NCBI RefSeq assembly: GCF_900167955.1
Contig: NZ_FUYK01000004.1
Location: 35,975 to 67,974, forward strand
Reading direction: 5' to 3'
DNA length: 32,000 bases
Origin: Candidatus Nitrosotalea bavarica
Lineage (GTDB): Archaea > Thermoproteota > Nitrososphaeria > Nitrososphaerales > Nitrosopumilaceae
Shown: positions 21,426 to 32,000 of the stretch, in pieces
How positions within the stretch are numbered: position 1 is the stretch's first letter
How the letters are laid out: each line of letters begins with the position of its first letter
The notes under the pieces: generated by a model
Told to the model about the DNA's origin: nothing
What the model saw: the letters and a program-made list of their open reading frames with translations, nothing else
Databases searched by the model: none
Made by a program: the position numbers and the translations under genes

Positions 21426-22403
21426 TTGACTCTGGTAAAATTTGCAGTTCCCAAAGGAAGTATAGAAGAAGCCACCTTTAAGATACTTGAAAGATCATGG
21501 ACACGAGTAGTTAGACGGGAAAGAACTTATCGTGTAATATTGGACGACCCACAAATTTCAGTCAAGATGTTGCGTCCTCAGGAAATACCAAATTTGGTAT
21601 TTGCTGGTTTGTATGATGTTGGTATCACAGGAAGAGATTGGGTTAAAGAAACAAATTCAGATGTTGAAATACTTTTAGATCTAGAATATGGTAAAATAAA
21701 ACTTGTACTTGCAATACCTGATTCTTATAATTTCAAATCACTAGATGAAATGATTTTGTCTTATGCAAAGAAGAAAAAAACATTGCGAATTTCTTCAGAG
21801 TATCTAAATACAACTGCTAAATTCATCATGCAGTGTAAGAGCTACAAGAAACTTTATGGTTCAAAGCATCCAATTATTGTAACTCCATGGTTGAGTCAAG
21901 GTTCAAACAAGAATGTTCAGATCTTCCTTTCATTTGGCGCAACAGAAGCAAAACCCCCTGAGGATGTAGATGCAATTGTAGATGTAACAGAAACTGGTAC
22001 TACTCTGACACAAAATCAATTGAAGATAATTGACACCGTGATGGAATCAGCGGCAGTCTTGATTGCAAATAAAACATCACTTAAAGACAAATCAAAAAGA
22101 GAAAAAATTTATGATATCGTAACTATGTTAAGAGGAGCAGTTGAAGGAAAAAAACACCTTCACCTATTCCTAAATGTGAAAGAAGAACATCTTAGCAAAT
22201 TATTACACGATTTGCCATCTCTGAAACGCCCTACCATAAGTCCTTTGAGTGAAAAAGGATGGTATGGCATAAATACTGTGATTCCTAAATCTGAATTCCA
22301 TAAAATGATTCCAAAATTACGAAAGATTGCTCAAGGTTTAGTAGTGCATGAACCAAAACAAATACTGGCACTTGAGGAGATAAAACGTGATGAGGAAAGT
22401 TGA
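21426..22403 (+). CDS. hisG: ATP phosphoribosyltransferase (long form with C-terminal regulatory domain)
   Basis: 325 aa. N-terminal LVKFAVPKGSIEE, GLYDVGITGRDW and DVTETGTTL motifs. First gene of the his cluster. TTG start is forced. Confidence 0.9.
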   Translation: MTLVKFAVPKGSIEEATFKILERSWTRVVRRERTYRVILDDPQISVKMLRPQEIPNLVFAGLYDVGITGRDWVKETNSDVEILLDLEYGKIKLVLAIPDSYNFKSLDEMILSYAKKKKTLRISSEYLNTTAKFIMQCKSYKKLYGSKHPIIVTPWLSQGSNKNVQIFLSFGATEAKPPEDVDAIVDVTETGTTLTQNQLKIIDTVMESAAVLIANKTSLKDKSKREKIYDIVTMLRGAVEGKKHLHLFLNVKEEHLSKLLHDLPSLKRPTISPLSEKGWYGINTVIPKSEFHKMIPKLRKIAQGLVVHEPKQILALEEIKRDEES

Positions 22404-23674
22404 TGCGAATTATAGATGTTCAAGACATAGGTTCTATCATAGAATCAATTAGACCCAAAACAAATGATGACGTAAAACAAAAAGTACTATCTATCATATC
22501 CAATGTACGAAAACGAAAAGATAAAGCCCTTAAAGAATATGAAACAAAATTCAGTGGAGTAAAAATCCATTCTTTAAAAGTTACTAAACAGGAAATAAAA
22601 TCTGCATACTCCAAGGTTGGAAAAGATCAAATCGAAGGCATTAAACTTGCAAAAATGAGATTAGAAAAATCTGAAAATGCTGTACGCAAAAAATTACAAA
22701 ATATGACAATAGTGATTGATGGTGTTGTGATGAAAAAAACATTTTTACCGATTGATACGGTAGGTTGCTATATTCCAGGAGGAAAGGCAAGATATCCAAG
22801 TAGTGTTGTTATGTCTGTTGTTCCAGCAAAGGTTGCAGGTGTTAAGAAAATAATAGCAGTATCTCCTCCAAACGAAAAAGGGAAAATAGATCCATTAACA
22901 CTTGTAGCAGCTGATATTTGTGGTGTGGATGAATTCTATAAAACAGGAGGTGCTCAGGCAATCACCGCCTTGGCATATGGCACTGAATCAATTCCACAAG
23001 TAGACAAGATAGTTGGTCCAGGAGGAGTATTTGTAACTCTTGCCAAATCTTTACTAAGTGAGGTAGTTTCAATTGATATGATTGCAGGTCCTACTGAACT
23101 TGCCATTGTTGCAGATGCTACTGCAGATGCTGAACTTGTCTCACTTGATTTAATCTCTCAGGCAGAGCATAGTCCAGATTCAATGTGCTGCCTGATTACA
23201 AACTCTTTGAAATTAAAAAACTTGGTACTACAATCATTACAACAAAAAATTAAAACAATCAAGAGAGCCTCTATTGTAGAAGAAAGCCTACGAAAAAATG
23301 GGTTCATAGCTATTTGTAGCACAGAACAACAAATGGTTGATTTTGCAAACAAACTTGCACCTGAACACCTTGAAATAATCACAAAAACTCCACAAAAATT
23401 AGCAAAGAAAATAAAATCAGCAGGATTGACATTAATTGGAAAAAACACTCCATCCTCAGCTAGTGATTATCTATTAGGTTCAAATCATATACTTCCAACT
23501 AATCGATTTGGAAGAACCAGAGGTTCACTTGGTGTATTGGATTACCTGAAGATGAATACTCAAATAGAATCCTCTAAACTTGCCTTGGGAAAAATTTCAA
23601 AATATATGAAAGCCTTGACTGATGCAGAAGGATTGCCAAATCACTATGAAGCAGTAAGGGGAAGATTATCATGA
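22403..23674 (+). CDS. hisD: Histidinol dehydrogenase
   Basis: About 423 aa with YIPGGKARYPSSVVM, GGAQAI, GPGGVFV and SQAEHSPDS motifs. The ATG at 22403 overlaps the hisG stop (TGATG); a TTG at 22400 is also possible. Confidence 0.93.
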   Translation: MRIIDVQDIGSIIESIRPKTNDDVKQKVLSIISNVRKRKDKALKEYETKFSGVKIHSLKVTKQEIKSAYSKVGKDQIEGIKLAKMRLEKSENAVRKKLQNMTIVIDGVVMKKTFLPIDTVGCYIPGGKARYPSSVVMSVVPAKVAGVKKIIAVSPPNEKGKIDPLTLVAADICGVDEFYKTGGAQAITALAYGTESIPQVDKIVGPGGVFVTLAKSLLSEVVSIDMIAGPTELAIVADATADAELVSLDLISQAEHSPDSMCCLITNSLKLKNLVLQSLQQKIKTIKRASIVEESLRKNGFIAICSTEQQMVDFANKLAPEHLEIITKTPQKLAKKIKSAGLTLIGKNTPSSASDYLLGSNHILPTNRFGRTRGSLGVLDYLKMNTQIESSKLALGKISKYMKALTDAEGLPNHYEAVRGRLS

Positions 23675-24741
23675 AAAAAGATTGGTTTGAAAAAGAATTA
23701 GAAAAATATTCTAAACTTGTAGGTTACAAGAAACCTGAAAAATATTCTAATGTGATAAAACTTGATTCAAACGAAAATTATGTAGTATCTCAGGAATTTC
23801 TTCAGAAAATGATAAACGAAGTGAAGGAAAACATAGATGTTAGAGAATATCCATTAGGTGGAACAGAAAGATTATCTCAATCTATTTCAAAATACATGGG
23901 AATACCAAGAGAAATGATTGGTGTTGGAAACGGATCTGATCAGATAATTGATCTTATTCTAAGTACCTTTGCTTCTAAAGGAACAAAAATTCTAACATCT
24001 GATCCAACCTTTGGATTCTTTGAAGAACGATGTAAACTATATTCTATTCGTACATTAAAAATTCCATTTGATAAAAATATGACCCTTGATCTAGAAAAAT
24101 TTTTGTTAAACTCCAAGAAAGCTGATATTCTTTATCTTGATATGCCAAATAATCCAACTGGATTTCAATTTCAGAGAAAAGATCTAGAAAAATTGATTCG
24201 GGAATTCAAGGGCCTTGTAATCATAGATGAAGCATATGTGGAATTCTCTGATTATTCTATTGTAGAAATGACAAAAAAAATCAATAATCTTATTGTGTTA
24301 CGAACCTTATCAAAATCGTTTGGATTAGCTGGATTGCGAGTAGGGTATTTAGTGGCTAATTCCAAAATAATTGATACATTTACGAGGGTAATCCAATATC
24401 CTTATCCGTTAAACACTCTGGCAATAGAGATTGGTATAGTGGCATTAAGACAATCCAAATATTTCACAGATATTGCAGATCTTGTCAAGAAAGAACGTTT
24501 ACGAATTATCATTAATCTTAAACAGATGAAAATATTCGAGGTATTTGACTCAAAAGCAAATTTTGTTCTTTTTTCAGCTGGAGGTTCTGGTCAAAGAATT
24601 CACAAGGCACTAATCGAACAAGGTATATCAATTAAAAATCTTGGTAAAATTGGTCAACATGAAGGCTGTCTGAGAGTTACCGTAGGTTCACAAGATATGA
24701 ATTCTAAATTTCTTACAGCTATACGGGATTTATTGAATTGA
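23671..24741 (+). CDS. hisC: Histidinol-phosphate aminotransferase
   Basis: 356 aa, class II aminotransferase pattern. LDSNEN, NPNNPTG-like PNNPTG, IDEAY and the PLP lysine context LRTLSKSFGLAGLRVGY. ATGA overlap with hisD. Confidence 0.9.
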   Translation: MKKDWFEKELEKYSKLVGYKKPEKYSNVIKLDSNENYVVSQEFLQKMINEVKENIDVREYPLGGTERLSQSISKYMGIPREMIGVGNGSDQIIDLILSTFASKGTKILTSDPTFGFFEERCKLYSIRTLKIPFDKNMTLDLEKFLLNSKKADILYLDMPNNPTGFQFQRKDLEKLIREFKGLVIIDEAYVEFSDYSIVEMTKKINNLIVLRTLSKSFGLAGLRVGYLVANSKIIDTFTRVIQYPYPLNTLAIEIGIVALRQSKYFTDIADLVKKERLRIIINLKQMKIFEVFDSKANFVLFSAGGSGQRIHKALIEQGISIKNLGKIGQHEGCLRVTVGSQDMNSKFLTAIRDLLN

Positions 24742-25724
24742 CTTTAAACGAAATACAAAATGGAATCATGATAGATTCCACAAAAATCGAAAAGATAAAG
24801 CAACTAGACTCTATAGTGTTTGACTGTGATGGAGTTCTAATAGACGTGTCTAATTCTTATGATTTGGCTATAAAAAAGACTGTAGATTTTATTATAAAAG
24901 AAATGGCCCAAGTCAATGAATCTGGATTAGTAACAACAAGTATGATAGAAGGTTTCAAGACTAGCGGTGGTTTTAATGATGAAATTGATGTGGCGTATGC
25001 GTTAATACTTTCCGTTGTAGCTGCAAAGAAAAAAAATGAATTATTTTCTAAATTTGTTCTTAAAGTAATAGAAAATACAGATCAGACCGGCATAAAATCA
25101 GTTGAGAAATATCTAGACAGTATCAACATTAATGTTTTTGATATCAGAAAAAAACTATCGTATCCAAGTGAAAAATTCCAAAATCCTCTTTCCTCCATAT
25201 TTGACGAAATGTTCTATGGTTCTGAATTATATGTACAACTTTACAAGAGAAAACCACAGTTTTTTGATGGTTTGGGATTAATTGAAAACGATGTAGTACT
25301 TTTGAATAAAGACCTTGTAAAAAGTTTACATGAAAGATTTGGCAAAAAAATTGCCATTGTGACAGGCCGAGGTCTTCTATCAGCAAAACATTCTCTTAAA
25401 GACCTATTCGATGAATTTGATTTGAATAATTCTAGATTCCTAGAGGATGAGCCACGTGAAATGGCAAAACCAAATCCTCAATCTCTTATATCTACAATAA
25501 ATGGTATGAACGGAAATAACTCGCTATACGTGGGTGACTCTATGGAGGACTATATCATGGCACGTAAGGCAAATGAGTCTGGAGTTTCAACAATATTCTG
25601 TGGGGTATATGGCACTAGCAAGGACCAGGATGCAAAAAGATCTCTATTTGAGAGCAACAATGCCGACATTATAGTCAAATCTATAGATCTAATTCCGAAG
25701 ACATTAAATCTAGTTAGGGCATAA
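24738..25724 (+). CDS. HAD-superfamily phosphatase with a large cap insertion; candidate histidinol-phosphate phosphatase
   Basis: 328 aa. HAD motif I is [11 protein letters not shown], motif II IAIVTGR, motif III AKPNP and motif [14 protein letters not shown]. About 170 aa lie between motifs I and II. The gene is embedded between hisC (TTGA overlap, or ATG at 24768) and hisB. The HAD fold call is solid; the substrate call is contextual. Confidence 0.7.
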
Positions 25725-25740
25725 ATCACTTCTCTACTCA

Positions 25741-26337
25741 GTGATTTTAATGAAATCTAGAACAGCTCAAATCAATAGGAAGACTAAGGAAACCGAAGTA
25801 TTAGTTGAGGTAAATCTGGACGGAAAGGGGAAAATTTCTATAAAAACAGGTCTGCCATTTCTCGATCACCTAATCACATCATTATCTAAACATGCAATGC
25901 TTGACCTCAAATTGAATGCAAAATCACTAGATGGAATAGATCATCACCTAATCGAAGATATCGCAATAACTCTTGGAAATGCAATGGATCAATCTCTGGG
26001 TAATAGAGCAGGAATTGTAAGATTTGGTCACTCTTCAGTACCGATGGATGAATCTCTTGCAGAAGCATCACTAGATCTAATCAAAAGACAATATCAAAGA
26101 ATAGACTTGTCTATTGAAAGAAATCAGATAGAAGGAATCTCAAAGGAAGATTTGGAACACTTTTTCAGATCATTAGCACAGAATCTGAACATCTGTATAC
26201 ATGTATCTGTAAAATATGGTGAAAATGATCATCACAAAATTGAAGCTGCGATTAAGGCATTTGCAGTAGCATGGAGGACAGCAGCAGGTTATGATGAAAA
26301 ACAAAAAGGAGTACCAAGTACAAAAGGTGCTATGTAA
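25741..26337 (+). CDS. hisB: Imidazoleglycerol-phosphate dehydratase (monofunctional)
   Basis: R(K)TKETEV...[14 protein letters not shown] and [10 protein letters not shown] motifs (the two conserved His-rich IGPD blocks). The start is either GTG 25741 or ATG 25750. Confidence 0.93.
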
Positions 26338-26942
26338 TGGTAAAGGTTGCAATATTTGATTATGGGGCAGGAAACATATTCAGTCTTAAATCATCGTTAG
26401 AGAAAAATGAAGCAGACGTAGACATAATAACCAATCTAGAAAAAATAAAAAATTATTCTGGATTATTTTTACCTGGAGTGGGAAACTTTGATCCTGCGAT
26501 AAAAAGTCTTCATACTTCAAGAATTGCATTTCAAGATTTAGTAAGAAATCAAATTCCGGTGTTAGGCATATGCTTAGGAATGGAAATGTTCTTTGAGAAA
26601 AGTGAAGAAGGAAAATTAGGAGGGCTTGGAGTTTTAGAAGGCGAAGTGATAATTCTTCCAAATAAATTCAAGATTCCCCATATGGGATGGAATGATCTTC
26701 AAATAAAACAACCAAGTGTATTGTTAGAGGGAGTAAAAGAAGGTTCATGGGTTTACTTTGTTCACTCCTATAGAGTGAAACCAAAAAATGAAGATATCAT
26801 CAAGGCAGACTCTGATTATGGAATAAATGTTCCAGCTGTGATTGAAGATCAAACATTATTTGGAACTCAATTTCATCCTGAAAAGTCCGGCAAGGTTGGC
26901 TCTGTTATGATTAAAAACTTTTTACGAGTGTGTAAAAAGTGA
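26337..26942 (+). CDS. hisH: Imidazole glycerol phosphate synthase, glutamine amidotransferase subunit
   Basis: 201 aa with IFDYGAGN, the GICLGMEM nucleophile elbow, and FHPEKS. TAATG junction with hisB. Confidence 0.93.
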   Translation: MVKVAIFDYGAGNIFSLKSSLEKNEADVDIITNLEKIKNYSGLFLPGVGNFDPAIKSLHTSRIAFQDLVRNQIPVLGICLGMEMFFEKSEEGKLGGLGVLEGEVIILPNKFKIPHMGWNDLQIKQPSVLLEGVKEGSWVYFVHSYRVKPKNEDIIKADSDYGINVPAVIEDQTLFGTQFHPEKSGKVGSVMIKNFLRVCKK

Positions 26943-27646
26943 AAATAATTCCTGCTATTGATATAATGGATAATAAAGTAGTACGCCTGGTAAAAGGAGA
27001 CCCAAACAACAAAACTGTGTATAGTTCTGATCCCATTGGAATGGCAAAAAAATGGGAAAAAGTAGGTGCAGATATGCTTCATGTAGTAGATCTGGATGCT
27101 ACACTTGGAACAGGTTCAAATCTTCAAACAATTAAAAAAATATCTGAATCTGTTTCTATACCTATTGAATCAGCTGGAGGACTACGCACAAAGGAAATAA
27201 TAGAAAATGCATTACAATTTTCATCTCAAGTGGTTCTTGGAACTGTTGCTTTTAAAAATAAAGAAATCTTGGAAGAAATTTCAAAGAAATTTGGAAAAGA
27301 TCGAATTGTCATATCTGCAGATCAAATGGAAGGTAAGATTGTGATAAGTGGATGGACAGAAAGTACAGGCATACCACTTATTGAAGGAATTGAAAGTTTT
27401 GTCAGACTTGGATATTTACAATTTCTCATAACTACGGTAGAAAGAGATGGAACTCTTCATGGTCCAGATCTTAATTCTTTACAAAAAGCGTGTAACATAC
27501 AAAATGTAAATATTATTGCAAGCGGGGGAATCTCAAACTTGCAAGATATAGTAAATGTAAAAAAATGTGGTGCATATGGTGTAATTCTTGGTAAGGCATT
27601 ATATGATGGAAAAATATCGGTAGAGGAGGTTAAGACGCTAGCATGA
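26939..27646 (+). CDS. hisA: ProFAR isomerase
   Basis: 235 aa. MKIIPAIDIMDNKVVRL, a (beta/alpha)8 pattern, and SGGISNLQD. The GTG start is forced because the next Met would delete the IPAID catalytic block. GTGA overlap with hisH. Confidence 0.92.
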   Translation: MKIIPAIDIMDNKVVRLVKGDPNNKTVYSSDPIGMAKKWEKVGADMLHVVDLDATLGTGSNLQTIKKISESVSIPIESAGGLRTKEIIENALQFSSQVVLGTVAFKNKEILEEISKKFGKDRIVISADQMEGKIVISGWTESTGIPLIEGIESFVRLGYLQFLITTVERDGTLHGPDLNSLQKACNIQNVNIIASGGISNLQDIVNVKKCGAYGVILGKALYDGKISVEEVKTLA

Positions 27647-28446
27647 CTTTAACCAAGAGAGTAATTCCTTGTCTTGACGTAGATAAAGGAAGAGTAGTCA
27701 AAGGAATGCATTTTACATCAATAAAAGATGCAGGTGATCCTGTTTTACTTGCAGAAAAATATAGTCAAGAGGGAGCAGATGAGTTAGTTTTTCTAGATAT
27801 TACAGCTTCTGAACAACAACGAGAAACAATCAAGAGTCTAGTAAAAAAAGTAGCACAGGTAATTGATATTCCATTTACTGTAGGTGGTGGTGTAAAGACC
27901 TTGCAGGATGCAAGAGATATTCTTCTTAGTGGTGCAGACAAGGTTGCTATTAATACAGGTGCTGTAAAAAATCCTGAGATAATTACAAAACTAATGGAGA
28001 TTTTTGGTAAACAATGCATAGTTATTGCAATGGATGTGAGGCGTAATTATGAAGTAAAGGAAGGTAGGCACATCTTTACATCTGACTCCAAAAAGTTTTG
28101 GTTTGAAGTCTATATTTATGGTGGTAAAACTCCTACAAATCTTGATGCAATAGAGTGGGCAAAGGAAGTTGAGAGACGTGGCGCAGGTGAGATTCTGCTA
28201 ACTAGTATAGACATGGATGGCACAAAGGAAGGATATGATATTCAACTTATCAGAGAAATTGTGAATGCGGTAAACATACCTGTTATTGCATCAGGGGGAT
28301 GTGGCAAACCCAAACATATGCTTGATGTGTTCTTGCAAACTAACGTAGATGCGGCATTGGCAGCATCAATATTCCATTACAAAACTCACTCTGTTGATAG
28401 AGTAAAAGAATATCTTAAGGAAAATGGAGTTCCTGTTAGACTATAA
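27643..28446 (+). CDS. hisF: Imidazole glycerol phosphate synthase, cyclase subunit
   Basis: 267 aa with [30 protein letters not shown] and ASGG motifs. ATGA overlap with hisA. Confidence 0.95.
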
Positions 28447-28479
28447 CAGAAAAATAGGGCACAAAATAAAGGTGTTATT

Positions 28480-28809
28480 GTGAATAAAAAAATAAATGAT
28501 ATTGATTTTGCAAAAAGTGAAGGTCTTGTACCAGTAATTGTCCAAGATGTACATTCTAGAGAAGTTTTAACACTTGCATATGTAAATAAGGAATCTCTTG
28601 AACTTACTCAAAAAACTGGTAACTCGTGGTTCTGGAGCAGATCGAGAAACAAATTGTGGATGAAAGGAGAAGAATCAGGGAATATCCAAAAAGTCAAGGA
28701 AATTTTGGTAGATTGTGATTCTGATGCAATTATCTATCTGGTAGAACCAAGTGGACCTGCATGTCATACTGGAGAAAAAGTTTGTTTTCACAACATTTTA
28801 GAAAAATAA
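28480..28809 (+). CDS. hisI: Phosphoribosyl-AMP cyclohydrolase (monofunctional, no HisE domain)
   Basis: 109 aa with [42 protein letters not shown] and CHTGEKVCF motifs. GTG start. Confidence 0.9.
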
Positions 28810-28813
28810 TTCT

Positions 28814-29320
28814 TTAACACGGATCTAATCCCTTAGGTACGGTGTCCAAACCCTCAGTTTTATTTGAATATTCTGGAATATACTCGTTTATAATTTCAAA
28901 TGGTATTGATTTGTAAGGAACACCATCAAATATGATGTTCCAATGACCTACAAGCGATGTGGCATTACATAGCGAAAGGTTTCTTTCCGTATTAGGTTCA
29001 AAAAACTGTTTAAAGCTAGATTTTATTGTTCCATTAAATGGTATTTTGCTATAAGTGTCTCCTTTTGGATCTACAATATCAATTTCTCCTACATCAGTCG
29101 GTTTTAAGTCGCTTACTACAATGAAAATATGTTCTCCAAGTTTGTATTGATTCTTATTAATTGAAAATGGTCCAGAGGTAATCCATACCCACGGTTGTCC
29201 TTTACTTGCCTCTTGTTGATAATAAGAGTAAACTATAGCTGCAACTATTCCCGCTAATACAATTAACATAATTATTTTTCCTAAATGTTTCTTCTTTTTT
29301 GATCTCTGTTTTATTTTCAA
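28814..29320 (-). CDS. Hypothetical membrane-anchored extracytoplasmic protein
   Basis: 168-aa ORF with a basic N-terminus (KQRSKKKKH) followed by one TM (IIMLIVLAGIVAAIVYSYY). TTG start at 29320. No family recognised. Confidence 0.5.
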   Translation of the reverse strand: MKIKQRSKKKKHLGKIIMLIVLAGIVAAIVYSYYQQEASKGQPWVWITSGPFSINKNQYKLGEHIFIVVSDLKPTDVGEIDIVDPKGDTYSKIPFNGTIKSSFKQFFEPNTERNLSLCNATSLVGHWNIIFDGVPYKSIPFEIINEYIPEYSNKTEGLDTVPKGLDPC

Positions 29321-29554: not shown

Positions 29555-30772
29555 TTGGGAAAAATAAAATTTCTGCAATGCAGAGAATGTAAGAAGGAAT
29601 ATGCACCTACATTCAAGTATATTTGTGAGGAATGCTTTGGTCCTCTAGATGTGTGCTATGATTTTCCATCTGTGAATAAAAATACTTTTTCAAATCGCGA
29701 ACATACCTACTGGAGATATCATGAACTTTTACCAATTGAATCAAAATTCAATATCATAAGTATTGGTGCTGGAATGACCCCATTAATTAAGGCAGAAAAA
29801 TTGGGTAAATCACTCGGTCTGAATAATCTTTACATAAAAAATGATTCAGTAAATCCCACATTTTCATTTAAAGATAGACCTGCTGGAGTAGCAGTATCAA
29901 AAGCAAAAGAATTTGGTCTTTCTGCAGTGGGATGTGCATCTACCGGAAATCTTGCATCAGCTACAGCAGCGCATGCAGCAAAAGGTGATTTTCCTTGTTA
30001 CATATTTGCACCTAGTGATATTGAGCATGCAAAGATAACCCAAGCATTAGCTTATGGTGCTAATTTCATATCTGTTGATGGAACATATGATGACGCAAAT
30101 CGAATTGCTGCTCAAATAGGTGATAGCAAAGGTATAGGAATAGTAAACATAAACATGCGTTCGTATTATGTTGAAGGATCTAAGACACTAGCTTATGAAG
30201 TGGCAGAACAACTTGACTGGCAAGTACCTGATCAACTTATTGTACCAGTTGGTAGCGGAGCCATGTTAAATGCTATTTGTAAAGGCTTTGAAGAACTAGA
30301 AAATATTTCATTAATCAATCAAGTCTCTAACATGCATATGATTGCAGCTCAGCCACATGGATGTGCACCTATTGTTAATGCTTTCAAGAAAAAACTTTCA
30401 GAAGTAACTCCAGTGGAAACTCCGGATACCATCGCAAAAAGTTTAGCAATAGGTGATCCAGGTGACGGACAGTATGTATTAAGACGACTAAAACAATACA
30501 ATGGTTTTGCTGAGGAATCTAATAACAAGGAGATCTTGGATGCTATACTATTGCTGGCTAGAACTGAGGGAATATTTACAGAACCTGCCGGCGGTGTCTC
30601 TGTGGCAGTATTGAAAAAAATGGTTGATGAAGGAAAAATTGACAAGAATGATTGTACCGTATGTTATGTGACTGGTAATGGATTGAAAACAACAGAAGTT
30701 ATGATGGAAGTACTTCCAAAGCCTCAAGTAATGCAAGCTGATTTTGGTAAAATTTCAGCATTGGTGAGATAG
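29555..30772 (+). CDS. Threonine synthase-family PLP enzyme with an N-terminal zinc ribbon; true reaction uncertain given its neighbour
   Basis: 405 aa. CRECKKEY...CEEC zinc ribbon. PLP-lysine block NPTFSFKDRPAG (Lys codon 29870-29872), then ASTGNLASA and VPVGSGA, in the order found in the ThrC family. The TTG start is forced: it is the first start codon after the in-frame TAA at 29504-29506 and is needed to include the zinc ribbon. Confidence 0.85.
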   Translation: MGKIKFLQCRECKKEYAPTFKYICEECFGPLDVCYDFPSVNKNTFSNREHTYWRYHELLPIESKFNIISIGAGMTPLIKAEKLGKSLGLNNLYIKNDSVNPTFSFKDRPAGVAVSKAKEFGLSAVGCASTGNLASATAAHAAKGDFPCYIFAPSDIEHAKITQALAYGANFISVDGTYDDANRIAAQIGDSKGIGIVNINMRSYYVEGSKTLAYEVAEQLDWQVPDQLIVPVGSGAMLNAICKGFEELENISLINQVSNMHMIAAQPHGCAPIVNAFKKKLSEVTPVETPDTIAKSLAIGDPGDGQYVLRRLKQYNGFAEESNNKEILDAILLLARTEGIFTEPAGGVSVAVLKKMVDEGKIDKNDCTVCYVTGNGLKTTEVMMEVLPKPQVMQADFGKISALVR

Positions 30773-32000
30773 ATGGCAAATATCAAATTTACAATTCCTT
30801 CCGTATTGAACAAAGGTGGAGGAGAAAAGAAAGTAGACCTTACAGCTTCTACTCTTTTGGAAGCATTTGCTAAAATCTCAGAACAACTAGGAGACGAATT
30901 CAAAAGACGCGTTCTTAATCCAGATGGTTCTCCTAGATCGCTTATCAACATATACATCAACGGAAAAAACATGCGATTTTCAGGAGGTATGGAAACATCC
31001 CTAAAAGATGGGGATGAGATTTACGTATTGCCTGCAGTAGCTGGAGGATCTGAGCTATCAAGTAGAGATCTAGAAAAATATTCTAGACAAGTAATGCTAG
31101 AAGAAATTGGTTATGAGGGTCAACTCAAACTAAAAAAGGCAAAAGCATGTGTTGTTGGAGTGGGTGGACTTGGTAATCCTATAGTAACGCGACTGGTTGC
31201 TATGGGAATAGGAACGATAAGAATTGTTGATAGAGATGTGATAGAGTTATCCAATCTGCATAGGCAAACAATGTTTGATGAATCCGATATTGGTCAGGTC
31301 AAAGTTGAGGTAGCCGCAAAGAAACTAAAAAAAATGAACCCTGATGTCATAATTGAGGCATTACCTGTTTCTGTAAATGACTATACTGCACTAGATGTAG
31401 TAGAAGGATGTGATGTTGTAATTGATGCACTTGACAGTGTTAATGCAAGATATTCTCTTAACAAAGCCTGTATTAAAAAAAATATTCCATTTGTAACAGG
31501 AGCTGCAGTAGGAGTTTCAGGTCAGGTATTTACTATCTTGCCACATCAAACTGCATGTTATCATTGCATATTTCCGTCCTTGGATGAAAATTCTATGCCT
31601 ACATGTAGTACGGAGGGAGTTCACCCATCAATACTTTCTATTGTTGGGGGAATTGAGGTTGCAGAAGCAGTCAAAATTATGATAGGACGAACTCCAACAT
31701 TGGCAAATAAATTACTCTACATTGATCTTGATAATCTTGATTTCAATACTACTGTTTTCAATAAAGTAGATGAATGTCCCGAATGTGGTTCAGGTAAACA
31801 TGAAGAATTACCAACACAGGAATTCATTGTTGAAGAACTATGTGGACGTAACAGGGGAAAACGTACTTTCTCTATTACTCCAACAAAGATGATTGAGATT
31901 GACGTTCCAAAAATAACTAGTATTGCATCAGAGAAAGGCTTCAAAGTACAAAATCAAGGTGAACTTGGATTATCAATTTCTTCTAATGATATCTATGTGA
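30773..32000 (+). CDS. Fusion protein, 5' part only: CysO/MoaD/ThiS-like beta-grasp sulfur-carrier domain (aa 1-92, ending AVAGG) joined in frame to an E1-like ThiF/MoeB adenylyltransferase. Runs off the window.
   Basis: My own translation from ATG 30773, which immediately follows the ThrC-like TAG, is open for 409 codons to nt 32000, so the ORF is absent from the complete-ORF track. The N-terminal domain reads MANIKFTIPSVLNKGGGEKKV...INIYINGKNMRFSGGMETSLKDGDEIYVLPAVAGG, with the GG codons at 31043-31048. The E1 part follows directly: LEKYSRQV...GVGGLGNP...DRDVIELSNLHRQ, CYHC and CPEC zinc-site pairs, and the crossover-loop Cys in PTCSTEGV (31604-31606). Confidence 0.85.
   Translation, partial: MANIKFTIPSVLNKGGGEKKVDLTASTLLEAFAKISEQLGDEFKRRVLNPDGSPRSLINIYINGKNMRFSGGMETSLKDGDEIYVLPAVAGGSELSSRDLEKYSRQVMLEEIGYEGQLKLKKAKACVVGVGGLGNPIVTRLVAMGIGTIRIVDRDVIELSNLHRQTMFDESDIGQVKVEVAAKKLKKMNPDVIIEALPVSVNDYTALDVVEGCDVVIDALDSVNARYSLNKACIKKNIPFVTGAAVGVSGQVFTILPHQTACYHCIFPSLDENSMPTCSTEGVHPSILSIVGGIEVAEAVKIMIGRTPTLANKLLYIDLDNLDFNTTVFNKVDECPECGSGKHEELPTQEFIVEELCGRNRGKRTFSITPTKMIEIDVPKITSIASEKGFKVQNQGELGLSISSNDIYV

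Follow-up and report, generated by a model that had tools for sequence, protein, structure and literature searches.

Fusions of a ubiquitin-like (Ubl) domain to an E1-like activating enzyme are known from comparative genomics. 'Ubl-E1-TBP in Thaumarchaeota' was placed among the 'telling fusions shared with bacteria' by Makarova & Koonin (2010, Archaea 2010:710303), and a MoaD-MoeB fusion, cluster 356.1, was recorded in 61 of 98 Thaumarchaeota assemblies as well as in Rokubacteria and NC10 (mSystems 2024, PMC11237513). Here we describe a gene of this family at the end of a 32,000-nucleotide stretch of the Candidatus Nitrosotalea bavarica genome (contig NZ_FUYK01000004.1, positions 35,975 to 67,974 of the forward strand; RefSeq assembly GCF_900167955.1), hereafter called the window. 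The gene opens at window position 30773 and encodes, in a single reading frame, a beta-grasp sulfur-carrier domain, an E1 domain of the ThiF/MoeB type and a TBP-like domain, directly downstream of a gene for a ThrC-like enzyme. It shares with the published fusions the family, the three domains and their order, the taxon and the neighbour arCOG01434; the architecture itself was already known. Those papers list the architecture only, with no junction analysis, no experiments and no function past 'telling fusion' or molybdopterin. A preliminary description of the window had mentioned Ubl-E1 fusions in comparative-genomic surveys and knew of no biochemical characterisation. Both points hold. In full-text literature searches, biochemical work on a carrier-E1 fusion did not turn up, nor did any paper tying thiocarboxylate chemistry to these archaea. 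What is new here is a seamless carrier-E1 junction, with Gly92 aligned to the position of MoeB Met1, a carrier domain nearest to CysO, a carrier for amino-acid sulfur, and a strict coupling of the fusion to what looks like a MetM-related ThrC homologue. We suggest, with a probability of roughly 0.5, that the fusion is cleaved and works with the ThrC-like enzyme in a MetM/MetO-like protein-thiocarboxylate route to homocysteine.

The CysO-CysM pathway, to which the GG-X amidase Mec, a JAMM protein, belongs, is one of the closest systems for comparison. The CysO-CysM-Mec-MoeZ system of Mycobacterium tuberculosis (CysO-CysM complex, PDB 3DWG) resembles the Nitrosotalea locus in that its carrier aligns end to end with the N-terminal domain of the fusion and a pyridoxal phosphate (PLP) enzyme is encoded beside the carrier. 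It differs in that CysO is a free protein of 93 amino acids with Mec in its operon, the MoeZ E1 has a rhodanese domain and is encoded elsewhere, and the PLP partner is a cysteine-synthase homologue and not ThrC. In Streptomyces albulus, the ThrC homologue MetM makes homocysteine from O-phosphohomoserine and the thiocarboxylate of MetO, with the JAMM hydrolase Mec and MoeZ (Hasebe et al. 2024 via GapMind 2026, mSystems 2025). As that system is related in these later accounts, it shares with our locus a ThrC homologue encoded beside a MoaD/CysO-like carrier, whereas the carrier here is fused to its E1, a TBP-like domain stands in place of rhodanese, the host is archaeal, and neither a nearby Mec gene (within 10 kb on either side in 80 genomes) nor an S-adenosylmethionine (SAM) riboswitch (Rfam search of the window) was detected.

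An internal carrier diglycine that needs exposure by proteolysis is found in Deinococcus (DR0402/DRJAMM) and in Haloferax (HvJAMM1 with SAMP1-MoaE). Fused MoaD-MoaE needs post-translational cleavage (mSystems 2024, PMC11237513), and its cleavage by JAMM proteases is the published precedent for processing of a carrier fusion. In those proteins the carrier is fused to the acceptor MoaE; in the Nitrosotalea protein it is fused to the activating enzyme, which takes that very glycine as its substrate. The E1 domain shares its core fold, its nucleotide-binding and zinc residues and its N-terminal sequence with the E. coli MoeB-MoaD and ThiF-ThiS systems (PDB 1JW9 and 1ZUD), but these consist of separate polypeptides and have no TBP-like domain. 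Ub-like domains fused to bacterial ThiF have also been described (Iyer, Burroughs & Aravind 2006), and those of the Campylobacter jejuni type likewise place a beta-grasp domain at the E1 N-terminus; they are distinct from ThiS and usually occur with a separate ThiS, whereas the Nitrosotalea domain is a typical CysO-like carrier, with no separate one on record.

The fusion gene and its carrier-E1 junction

The reading frame opens at ATG 30773, reads MANIKF...IYVLPAVAGG and then SELSSRDLEKYSRQVMLEEIGYEGQLKLKKAKACVVGVGGLG, and remains open for 409 codons to the window end (translation of 30773-32000). Relatives P0002 and P0006 give a full length of 438 amino acids, such that the window misses just the last 29 residues. 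The gene has the following features, all on the forward strand.

30773-31048, forward strand: CysO/MoaD-type beta-grasp carrier domain, residues 1-92, ending in LPAVAGG (residues 86-92)
31043-31048, forward strand: Gly91-Gly92, with the predicted processing site between Gly92 and Ser93
31049-31795, forward strand: E1-like adenylation domain of the ThiF/MoeB type, residues 93-341
31079-31090, forward strand: YSRQ, the E1 N-terminal motif, including Arg105
31157-31174, forward strand: GVGGLG, the E1 glycine loop
31433-31435, forward strand: Asp221 of the E1, invariant
31604-31606, forward strand: Cys278 of the E1 crossover loop, at least 90% conserved
31823-32000, forward strand: TBP-like C-terminal domain, residues about 351-438, cut by the window end at residue 409
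31841-31843, forward strand: Cys357 (in ELCGR), invariant in 16 of 16 sequences

YVLPAVAGG reads straight through into the E1 with no stop codon, and the letters that follow Gly92 are SELSSRDLEKYSRQVML. Only two in-frame ATG, GTG or TTG codons lie near the junction, namely Leu86 (TTG), 5' of the diglycine, and Met108 (ATG), 3' of YSRQ. Because there is no start codon between them, a separately initiated E1 would miss its essential N-terminal arginine motif, and an internal E1 restart was rejected on these grounds. In the alignment with E. coli MoeB, Ala2 of MoeB pairs with Ser93 of the fusion (AELSDQEMLRYNRQ in MoeB and SELSSRDLEKYSRQ in the fusion) and Gly92 takes the place of MoeB Met1. Homology to MoeB therefore begins at Ser93, leaving no linker between carrier and E1. 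The gene product has no free C-terminal glycine carboxylate, and since the frame continues into the E1 with neither a stop nor a restart, a free glycine end would need proteolysis. Residues 89-93 have a predicted local distance difference test (pLDDT) score below 50 in the AlphaFold 2 (AF2) model, which suggests that the segment around the diglycine may be flexible. Codon translation and the Pfam ThiS and ThiF matches (below) bear out the preliminary description of a beta-grasp carrier joined without a stop to an E1 that has no ATG or GTG from which to restart, and the GxGGxG loop lies at the position given there. One detail is corrected: the L-x-x-YSRQ consensus starts eight residues after Gly92 and not nine.

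A scan with one genome per species yielded 560 relatives and was saturated by ammonia oxidisers. The best 80 of the 560, which were used here, are species-level genomes of Nitrosotalea, Nitrosopumilaceae and Nitrosotenuis; the complete chromosome of Ca. Nitrosotalea devanaterra is among them. The junction, LPAVAGG[S/C][E/D]LS...YSRQ, is continuous in all 78 genomes of this set in which it could be read, with no stop or frameshift; the concern that an assembly indel at 31040-31055 conceals a stop is answered by these genomes. The denominator is 78 and not 80 because frameshifts blocked the readout in two long-read metagenome-assembled genomes (MAGs), L047 and L066, at about residue 158 and at residues 14-25, respectively, away from the junction.

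L047, 10474-10476: frameshift in the fusion gene, probably an indel error
L066, 10041-10075: frameshift in the fusion gene, probably an indel error

Both Pfam domains occur together in more than 120 protein clusters (80-99% identity, nearly all 437-439 amino acids long) from NCBI, ENA, JGI and Logan assemblies of Nitrosotalea, Nitrosopumilaceae and other Thaumarchaeota, and two Nitrososphaerota MAGs match the window at 100% over a 146-residue query. The fusion is real and conserved.

The carrier domain matches Pfam ThiS (PF02597) over residues 18-92, with the final profile position on Gly92 (37.4 bits against a cutoff of 22.5). Among solved structures it matches best the CysO proteins of Amycolatopsis (4N6E_B, E 9e-15) and M. 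tuberculosis (3DWG_C, E 9e-14). The alignments start at about residue 3-5 and run through to the final residue of each CysO, the tails are near-identical (INVYVNDEDVRFSGGLEAEVKDGDTLTILPAVAGG and INIYINGKNMRFSGGMETSLKDGDEIYVLPAVAGG), and the motifs RFSGG, DGD and LPAVAGG are common to the carrier domain and CysO. MoaD structures are much weaker matches (E 1e-4 to 0.03), and the SAMP1 model of NCBIfam scores below its cutoff (42.7-43.8 bits against 60). The secondary structure in the AF2 model, beta-beta-alpha-alpha-beta-beta, fits a beta-grasp fold, and together with the end-to-end CysO alignment it confirms the assignment of the N-terminal domain as a beta-grasp sulfur carrier.

The diglycine is also retained at much greater distances. 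A search of 1.8 billion representative proteins gave a divergent set of 16 fusions that are 31-58% identical to the query, some of which end in a rhodanese domain and some of which have no C-terminal domain at all. All 16 contain the motif [PA]-x-[VIAM]-[AGSV]-G-G, with a variable spacer between GG and YSRQ (0 to 15 extra residues). In an alignment of 15 fusions (29-86% identity), Gly91 and Gly92 are invariant and Asn63 is the sole other invariant residue of the carrier. This is the pattern expected of a tail that is still used as a carrier tail, and it argues against a purely structural domain; use as a carrier tail would in turn require a free carboxylate.

The E1 domain is covered by Pfam ThiF (PF00899) over residues 103-335 (E 1.6e-73). 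In sequence searches of the PDB it matches ThiF (E 1e-47) and MoeB (E 2e-39), aligning along the whole length of the E. coli proteins, and an AlphaFold model (pLDDT 88) superimposes on ThiF/MoeB in Foldseek with a target-normalised TM-score of 0.95 and a root-mean-square deviation of about 2 Å. Residues R105, G129/G131/G134, D153, R164, K177 and D221 are invariant, as are the zinc cysteines C262, C265, C335 and C338, which form two CxxC pairs. All NCBIfam equivalog cutoffs are missed (ThiF, 226 against 275; MoeB, 219 against 449; MoeZ, 157 against 647; UbaA, 211.6 against 450). The protein is thus an E1 of the ThiF/MoeB superfamily without being a recognised orthologue of any named enzyme.

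The Pfam search detected no rhodanese domain in the fusion protein, which has a TBP-like domain at its C-terminus instead. Modelled alone, this domain has an AF2 pLDDT of 89, and its leading Foldseek matches are almost exclusively TBP half-domains (probability 0.99-1.0). The invariant Cys357 is a candidate sulfur-relay residue. Some Ubl-E1-TBP relatives, such as P0121 (599 amino acids), have about 160 further C-terminal residues of TPR-like repeats.

Split versions of the gene were sought beside the nearest unfused E1-TBP proteins (P0127, P0130 and P0132), and no CysO-like and no ThrC-like gene adjoins any of them. The P0132 operon (L014, 2-3785) consists of a protein of at least 351 amino acids ending in MRGG, a 95-amino-acid protein ending in SRAG, the E1-TBP protein and a HATPase_c protein, and may be an unrelated Ubl-like or defence-type system.

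The upstream ThrC-like gene and its neighbourhood

The gene directly upstream of the fusion encodes a PLP enzyme of the ThrC family. Its TAG stop codon abuts ATG 30773 with zero spacer bases (GAGA TAG ATG).

29555-30772, forward strand: ThrC-family PLP enzyme, 405 amino acids (Pfam PALP, E 1.8e-71)
29579-29635, forward strand: N-terminal CxxC...CxxC zinc-ribbon-like extension of this enzyme (Cys9, 12, 24 and 27)

The PLP lysine motif, NPTFSFKDRP, occupies residues 100-109. Canonical ThrC structures lack the zinc-ribbon-like segment and align only from residue 54; the segment is degenerate in a homologue from Microcystis. NCBIfam labels the enzyme just 'threonine synthase'. It is 48-50% identical to the Microcystis ThrC/MetM homologue (50% over 366 residues by BLASTP), a sequence taken from a supplement and matched to the description in the paper (T9-T57 extension), and 36-39% identical to canonical ThrCs that are solved and biochemically established; the widest ranges in these comparisons are 48-53% and 35-42%, respectively. 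Several features are common to the archaeal and Microcystis proteins and are not found in canonical ThrCs: the motifs PT[FYL]SFKDR, ASTGNL, VNINxRxYYxEGSKT and TIAKSxAIGxPxDG, and a 7-residue insertion. According to its authors, the Microcystis ThrC is 51.6% identical to S. albulus MetM and is encoded beside a metO-like carrier gene.

In all 72 loci of ammonia-oxidising archaea (AOA) with enough flanking sequence, the ThrC-like gene immediately precedes the fusion on the same strand, with a spacer of 0-8 nucleotides. As arCOG01434, this neighbour is already present in the N. maritimus and Cenarchaeum gene tables of Makarova & Koonin (2010). Four lineages at a greater distance (L004, L005/6, L008/9 and L010) have the pair as well; in them the ThrC-like protein is still 57-67% identical, the E1 partner falls to as low as 33% identity and the TBP-like domain is sometimes lost. 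A protein search for distant ThrC-like relatives was seeded from L004, and the named matches listed were all from Nitrososphaera or Thaumarchaeota. Among the neighbours of the pair at these distant sites are TusA, ATP sulfurylase together with PAPS reductase, and a MetE-like gene; one further distant fusion has sulfur-related neighbours and no ThrC-like gene.

L005, 8371-8607: TusA gene flanking the ThrC-like/fusion pair
L010, 2084-2320: TusA gene flanking the ThrC-like/fusion pair
L011, 221-5601: NIL-ferredoxin protein, cysteine desulfurase and SufBD beside a distant fusion without a ThrC-like gene

Further upstream in the window is a complete histidine-biosynthesis operon (21426-28809). Its hisH gene (GATase) is a single open reading frame (ORF) of 201 amino acids (26337-26942) and is split into two pieces (157 and 51 amino acids) in the near-identical locus L001 (5558-6164), probably because the two assemblies differ or an indel is present. 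An ORF of 168 amino acids on the reverse strand (28814-29320) separates the his operon from the ThrC-like gene; it encodes a hydrophobic N-terminal segment, is kept in L001 (170 amino acids) and has no meaningful Pfam match.

A possible thiocarboxylate route to homocysteine

On the reading that we favour, the simplest that accommodates all these data, the gene for the three-domain protein, made up of a CysO-type carrier, a ThiF/MoeB-type E1 and a TBP-like domain, would share a transcript with that of a MetM-lineage PLP enzyme of the ThrC family and be translationally coupled to it, and its primary product would be a pro-protein. A GG-specific amidase would cut between Gly92 and Ser93 and free the C-terminal glycine of the carrier. 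The likeliest amidase would be among the small JAMM/MPN+ proteins encoded at other sites in these archaea. Pathways of the CysO/CysM/Mec kind need a GG-X amidase at every turnover to release the amino acid, and the same kind of enzyme could therefore plausibly mature a GG-Ser bond. The E1 dimer would then adenylate the freed glycine, and sulfur delivery, possibly via Cys278, via Cys357 of the TBP-like domain or via a TusA-type relay, would yield the carrier thiocarboxylate (carrier-COSH). With this thiocarboxylate the ThrC-like enzyme would convert O-phosphohomoserine to homocysteine, as in Streptomyces MetM/MetO; the mycobacterial CysO/CysM system does the equivalent for cysteine. In favour of this reading are the CysO-type carrier, the constraint on its diglycine, the complete E1, the coupling to the ThrC-like gene and the sulfur-related genes beside distant relatives.

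The gene tables of Makarova & Koonin (2010) bear on several of these steps. For N. maritimus and Cenarchaeum they list no E1 other than the fusion and record no free-standing ThiS, MoaD or Urm1 gene; the sole other MoaD-like domain is fused to Cgi121. Each of the two genomes encodes, at sites unlinked to the fusion, two Jab-family proteins (arCOG01138 and arCOG01139), which in N. maritimus are 133 and 130 amino acids long. The earlier argument that the carrier must be cut after Gly92 to work is consistent with the junction and conservation data; its further proposals, that fusion enforces 1:1 synthesis of carrier and activator and that proteolysis acts as an on-switch, are speculation.

A number of observations weigh against this reading. 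The preliminary description saw no protease gene in the window, and this was borne out: no JAMM motif (HxHx7-10SxxD) occurs in any of the six frames of the window and the remaining window genes have housekeeping functions only by Pfam, with no protease among them. Likewise, the 80 genomes have no gene for a JAMM protease or any other peptidase in the 10 kb on either side of the fusion (0 of 80 loci), and five distant loci have none. We infer both the cut after Gly92 and the identity of the protease from sequence, and the candidate proteases are two unlinked genes that come solely from a table published in 2010. The fusion has no rhodanese domain by Pfam, unlike the Streptomyces system, and the whole window has no Rfam match, so that a SAM riboswitch, sought on the model of Streptomyces metM, was not detected there. 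We likewise infer the formation of a thiocarboxylate and the role in homocysteine (methionine) synthesis. The link of the ThrC-like enzyme to the MetM lineage is transitive and runs via a single cyanobacterial homologue, that of Microcystis. For this homologue its authors reported threonine-synthase and deaminase activities in vitro and no clear synthesis of homocysteine. Libraries of hidden Markov models do not separate the lineage from ThrC (NCBIfam TIGR00260 scores both), and threonine synthase is regarded in one paper as having been gained once, in the ancestor of AOA. If these archaea have no second canonical ThrC, the upstream gene must at least also be a real threonine synthase.

Competing explanations and significance

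The beta-grasp domain may never be released and may not be a sulfur carrier at all. It would then serve in cis for docking, regulation or autoinhibition, for example by holding the ThrC-like enzyme or occupying the Ubl-binding surface, and the E1 would activate some other protein whose C-terminus is free, perhaps the Cgi121-Ubl fusion of Thaumarchaea or a small protein that has escaped annotation. The missing protease linkage in 80 genomes fits this view, and so does the presence of a second Ubl domain in Thaumarchaea, the one fused to Cgi121. Joined to the native N-terminus of the E1 without a spacer, Gly92 could be a rigid tether. A non-carrier role was argued by Iyer et al. (2006) for some bacterial Ub-like-ThiF fusions whose operons keep a separate ThiS, which also counts against the cleavage that we favour. 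However, the diglycine is the most conserved feature of the carrier across 29-86% identity and variable spacers, and it is not obvious why a docking module should require it. The full CysO tail motif, LPAVAGG, is kept as well. Free-standing ThiS, MoaD or Urm1 proteins are not recorded in N. maritimus or Cenarchaeum, and the very low AF2 confidence at the diglycine resembles that of a flexible tail rather than a packed interface. We consider an uncleaved module doubtful.

A second possibility accepts cleavage but makes the products a general-purpose carrier and E1, used in tRNA 2-thiolation or SAMP-like modification, with an ordinary threonine synthase upstream whose adjacency reflects operon history. 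The archaeal Ubl proteins served ancestrally in tRNA thiolation, in the view that Makarova & Koonin favour, and N. maritimus and Cenarchaeum each have a single E1. The upstream protein passes the NCBI threonine-synthase models, the related Microcystis enzyme has ThrC activity in vitro, and the single gain of threonine synthase in the AOA ancestor points the same way. Yet the pairing outlasts divergence of the E1 to 33% identity and loss of the TBP-like domain, and its start-stop coupling in 72 of 72 loci is far beyond chance synteny. The carrier is nearest to CysO and not to SAMP, Urm1 or TtuB-type carriers, with the SAMP1 and UbaA cutoffs missed, and the ThrC-like enzyme departs from canonical ThrC at several conserved motifs. 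As a complete account we judge this unlikely, but a general-purpose role and a homocysteine role are not mutually exclusive.

The database names make the protein a MoaD-MoeB pair of molybdenum-cofactor biosynthesis ('molybdopterin-synthase adenylyltransferase / molybdopterin converting factor small subunit'), and the mSystems 2024 survey treats the fusion under molybdopterin biosynthesis. It is very unlikely that this annotation is right for Nitrosotalea. MoaA, MoaB, MoaC, MoaE, MoeA and MobA are absent from N. maritimus and Cenarchaeum in the tables of Makarova & Koonin (2010), molybdoenzyme synthesis genes are reported to distinguish Nitrososphaerales from other AOA lineages, the MoeB equivalog cutoff is widely missed and MoaD structures match the carrier far more weakly than CysO does.

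That two ordinary genes were merged by an artefact, with a stop or frameshift lost at 31040-31055, is effectively excluded: although the window probably comes from a MAG and two related long-read MAGs do have frameshifts in the fusion gene, those lie at about residues 14-25 and 158 and not at the junction, the frame is continuous in 78 independent readable species genomes and in the more than 120 protein clusters, and a separate E1 would have no start codon.

The locus presents a mechanistic puzzle, in that the glycine that is the substrate of the activating enzyme is locked in a peptide bond to the first residue of that enzyme. The architecture has stood as one line in the literature since 2010, without experiment. 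A CysO-type carrier, the coupling to a ThrC homologue and the absence of a molybdenum-cofactor pathway together give a testable hypothesis for homocysteine and methionine synthesis in AOA, and the gene pair bears, in hundreds of genomes, the labels 'molybdopterin synthase' and 'threonine synthase', which are probably wrong or incomplete. Should cleavage take place, JAMM-type precursor processing would extend from carrier-acceptor to carrier-activator fusions.

A more far-reaching version of the cleavage reading, which we offer tentatively and think unlikely to hold in all its parts, is that the fusion would be a self-contained pro-enzyme in which the cut between Gly92 and Ser93 switches on the homocysteine route. 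The E1 dimer itself might help cleavage, because the cut site is the native N-terminus of the E1 and lies beside the active site of the dimer partner. The ThrC-like enzyme would then be the sole ThrC homologue and would partition O-phosphohomoserine between threonine, formed by attack of water, and homocysteine, formed by attack of the thiocarboxylate. Should this unlikely version prove true, the methionine supply of some of Earth's most abundant archaea would hang on an unrecognised pathway with a proteolytic control point.

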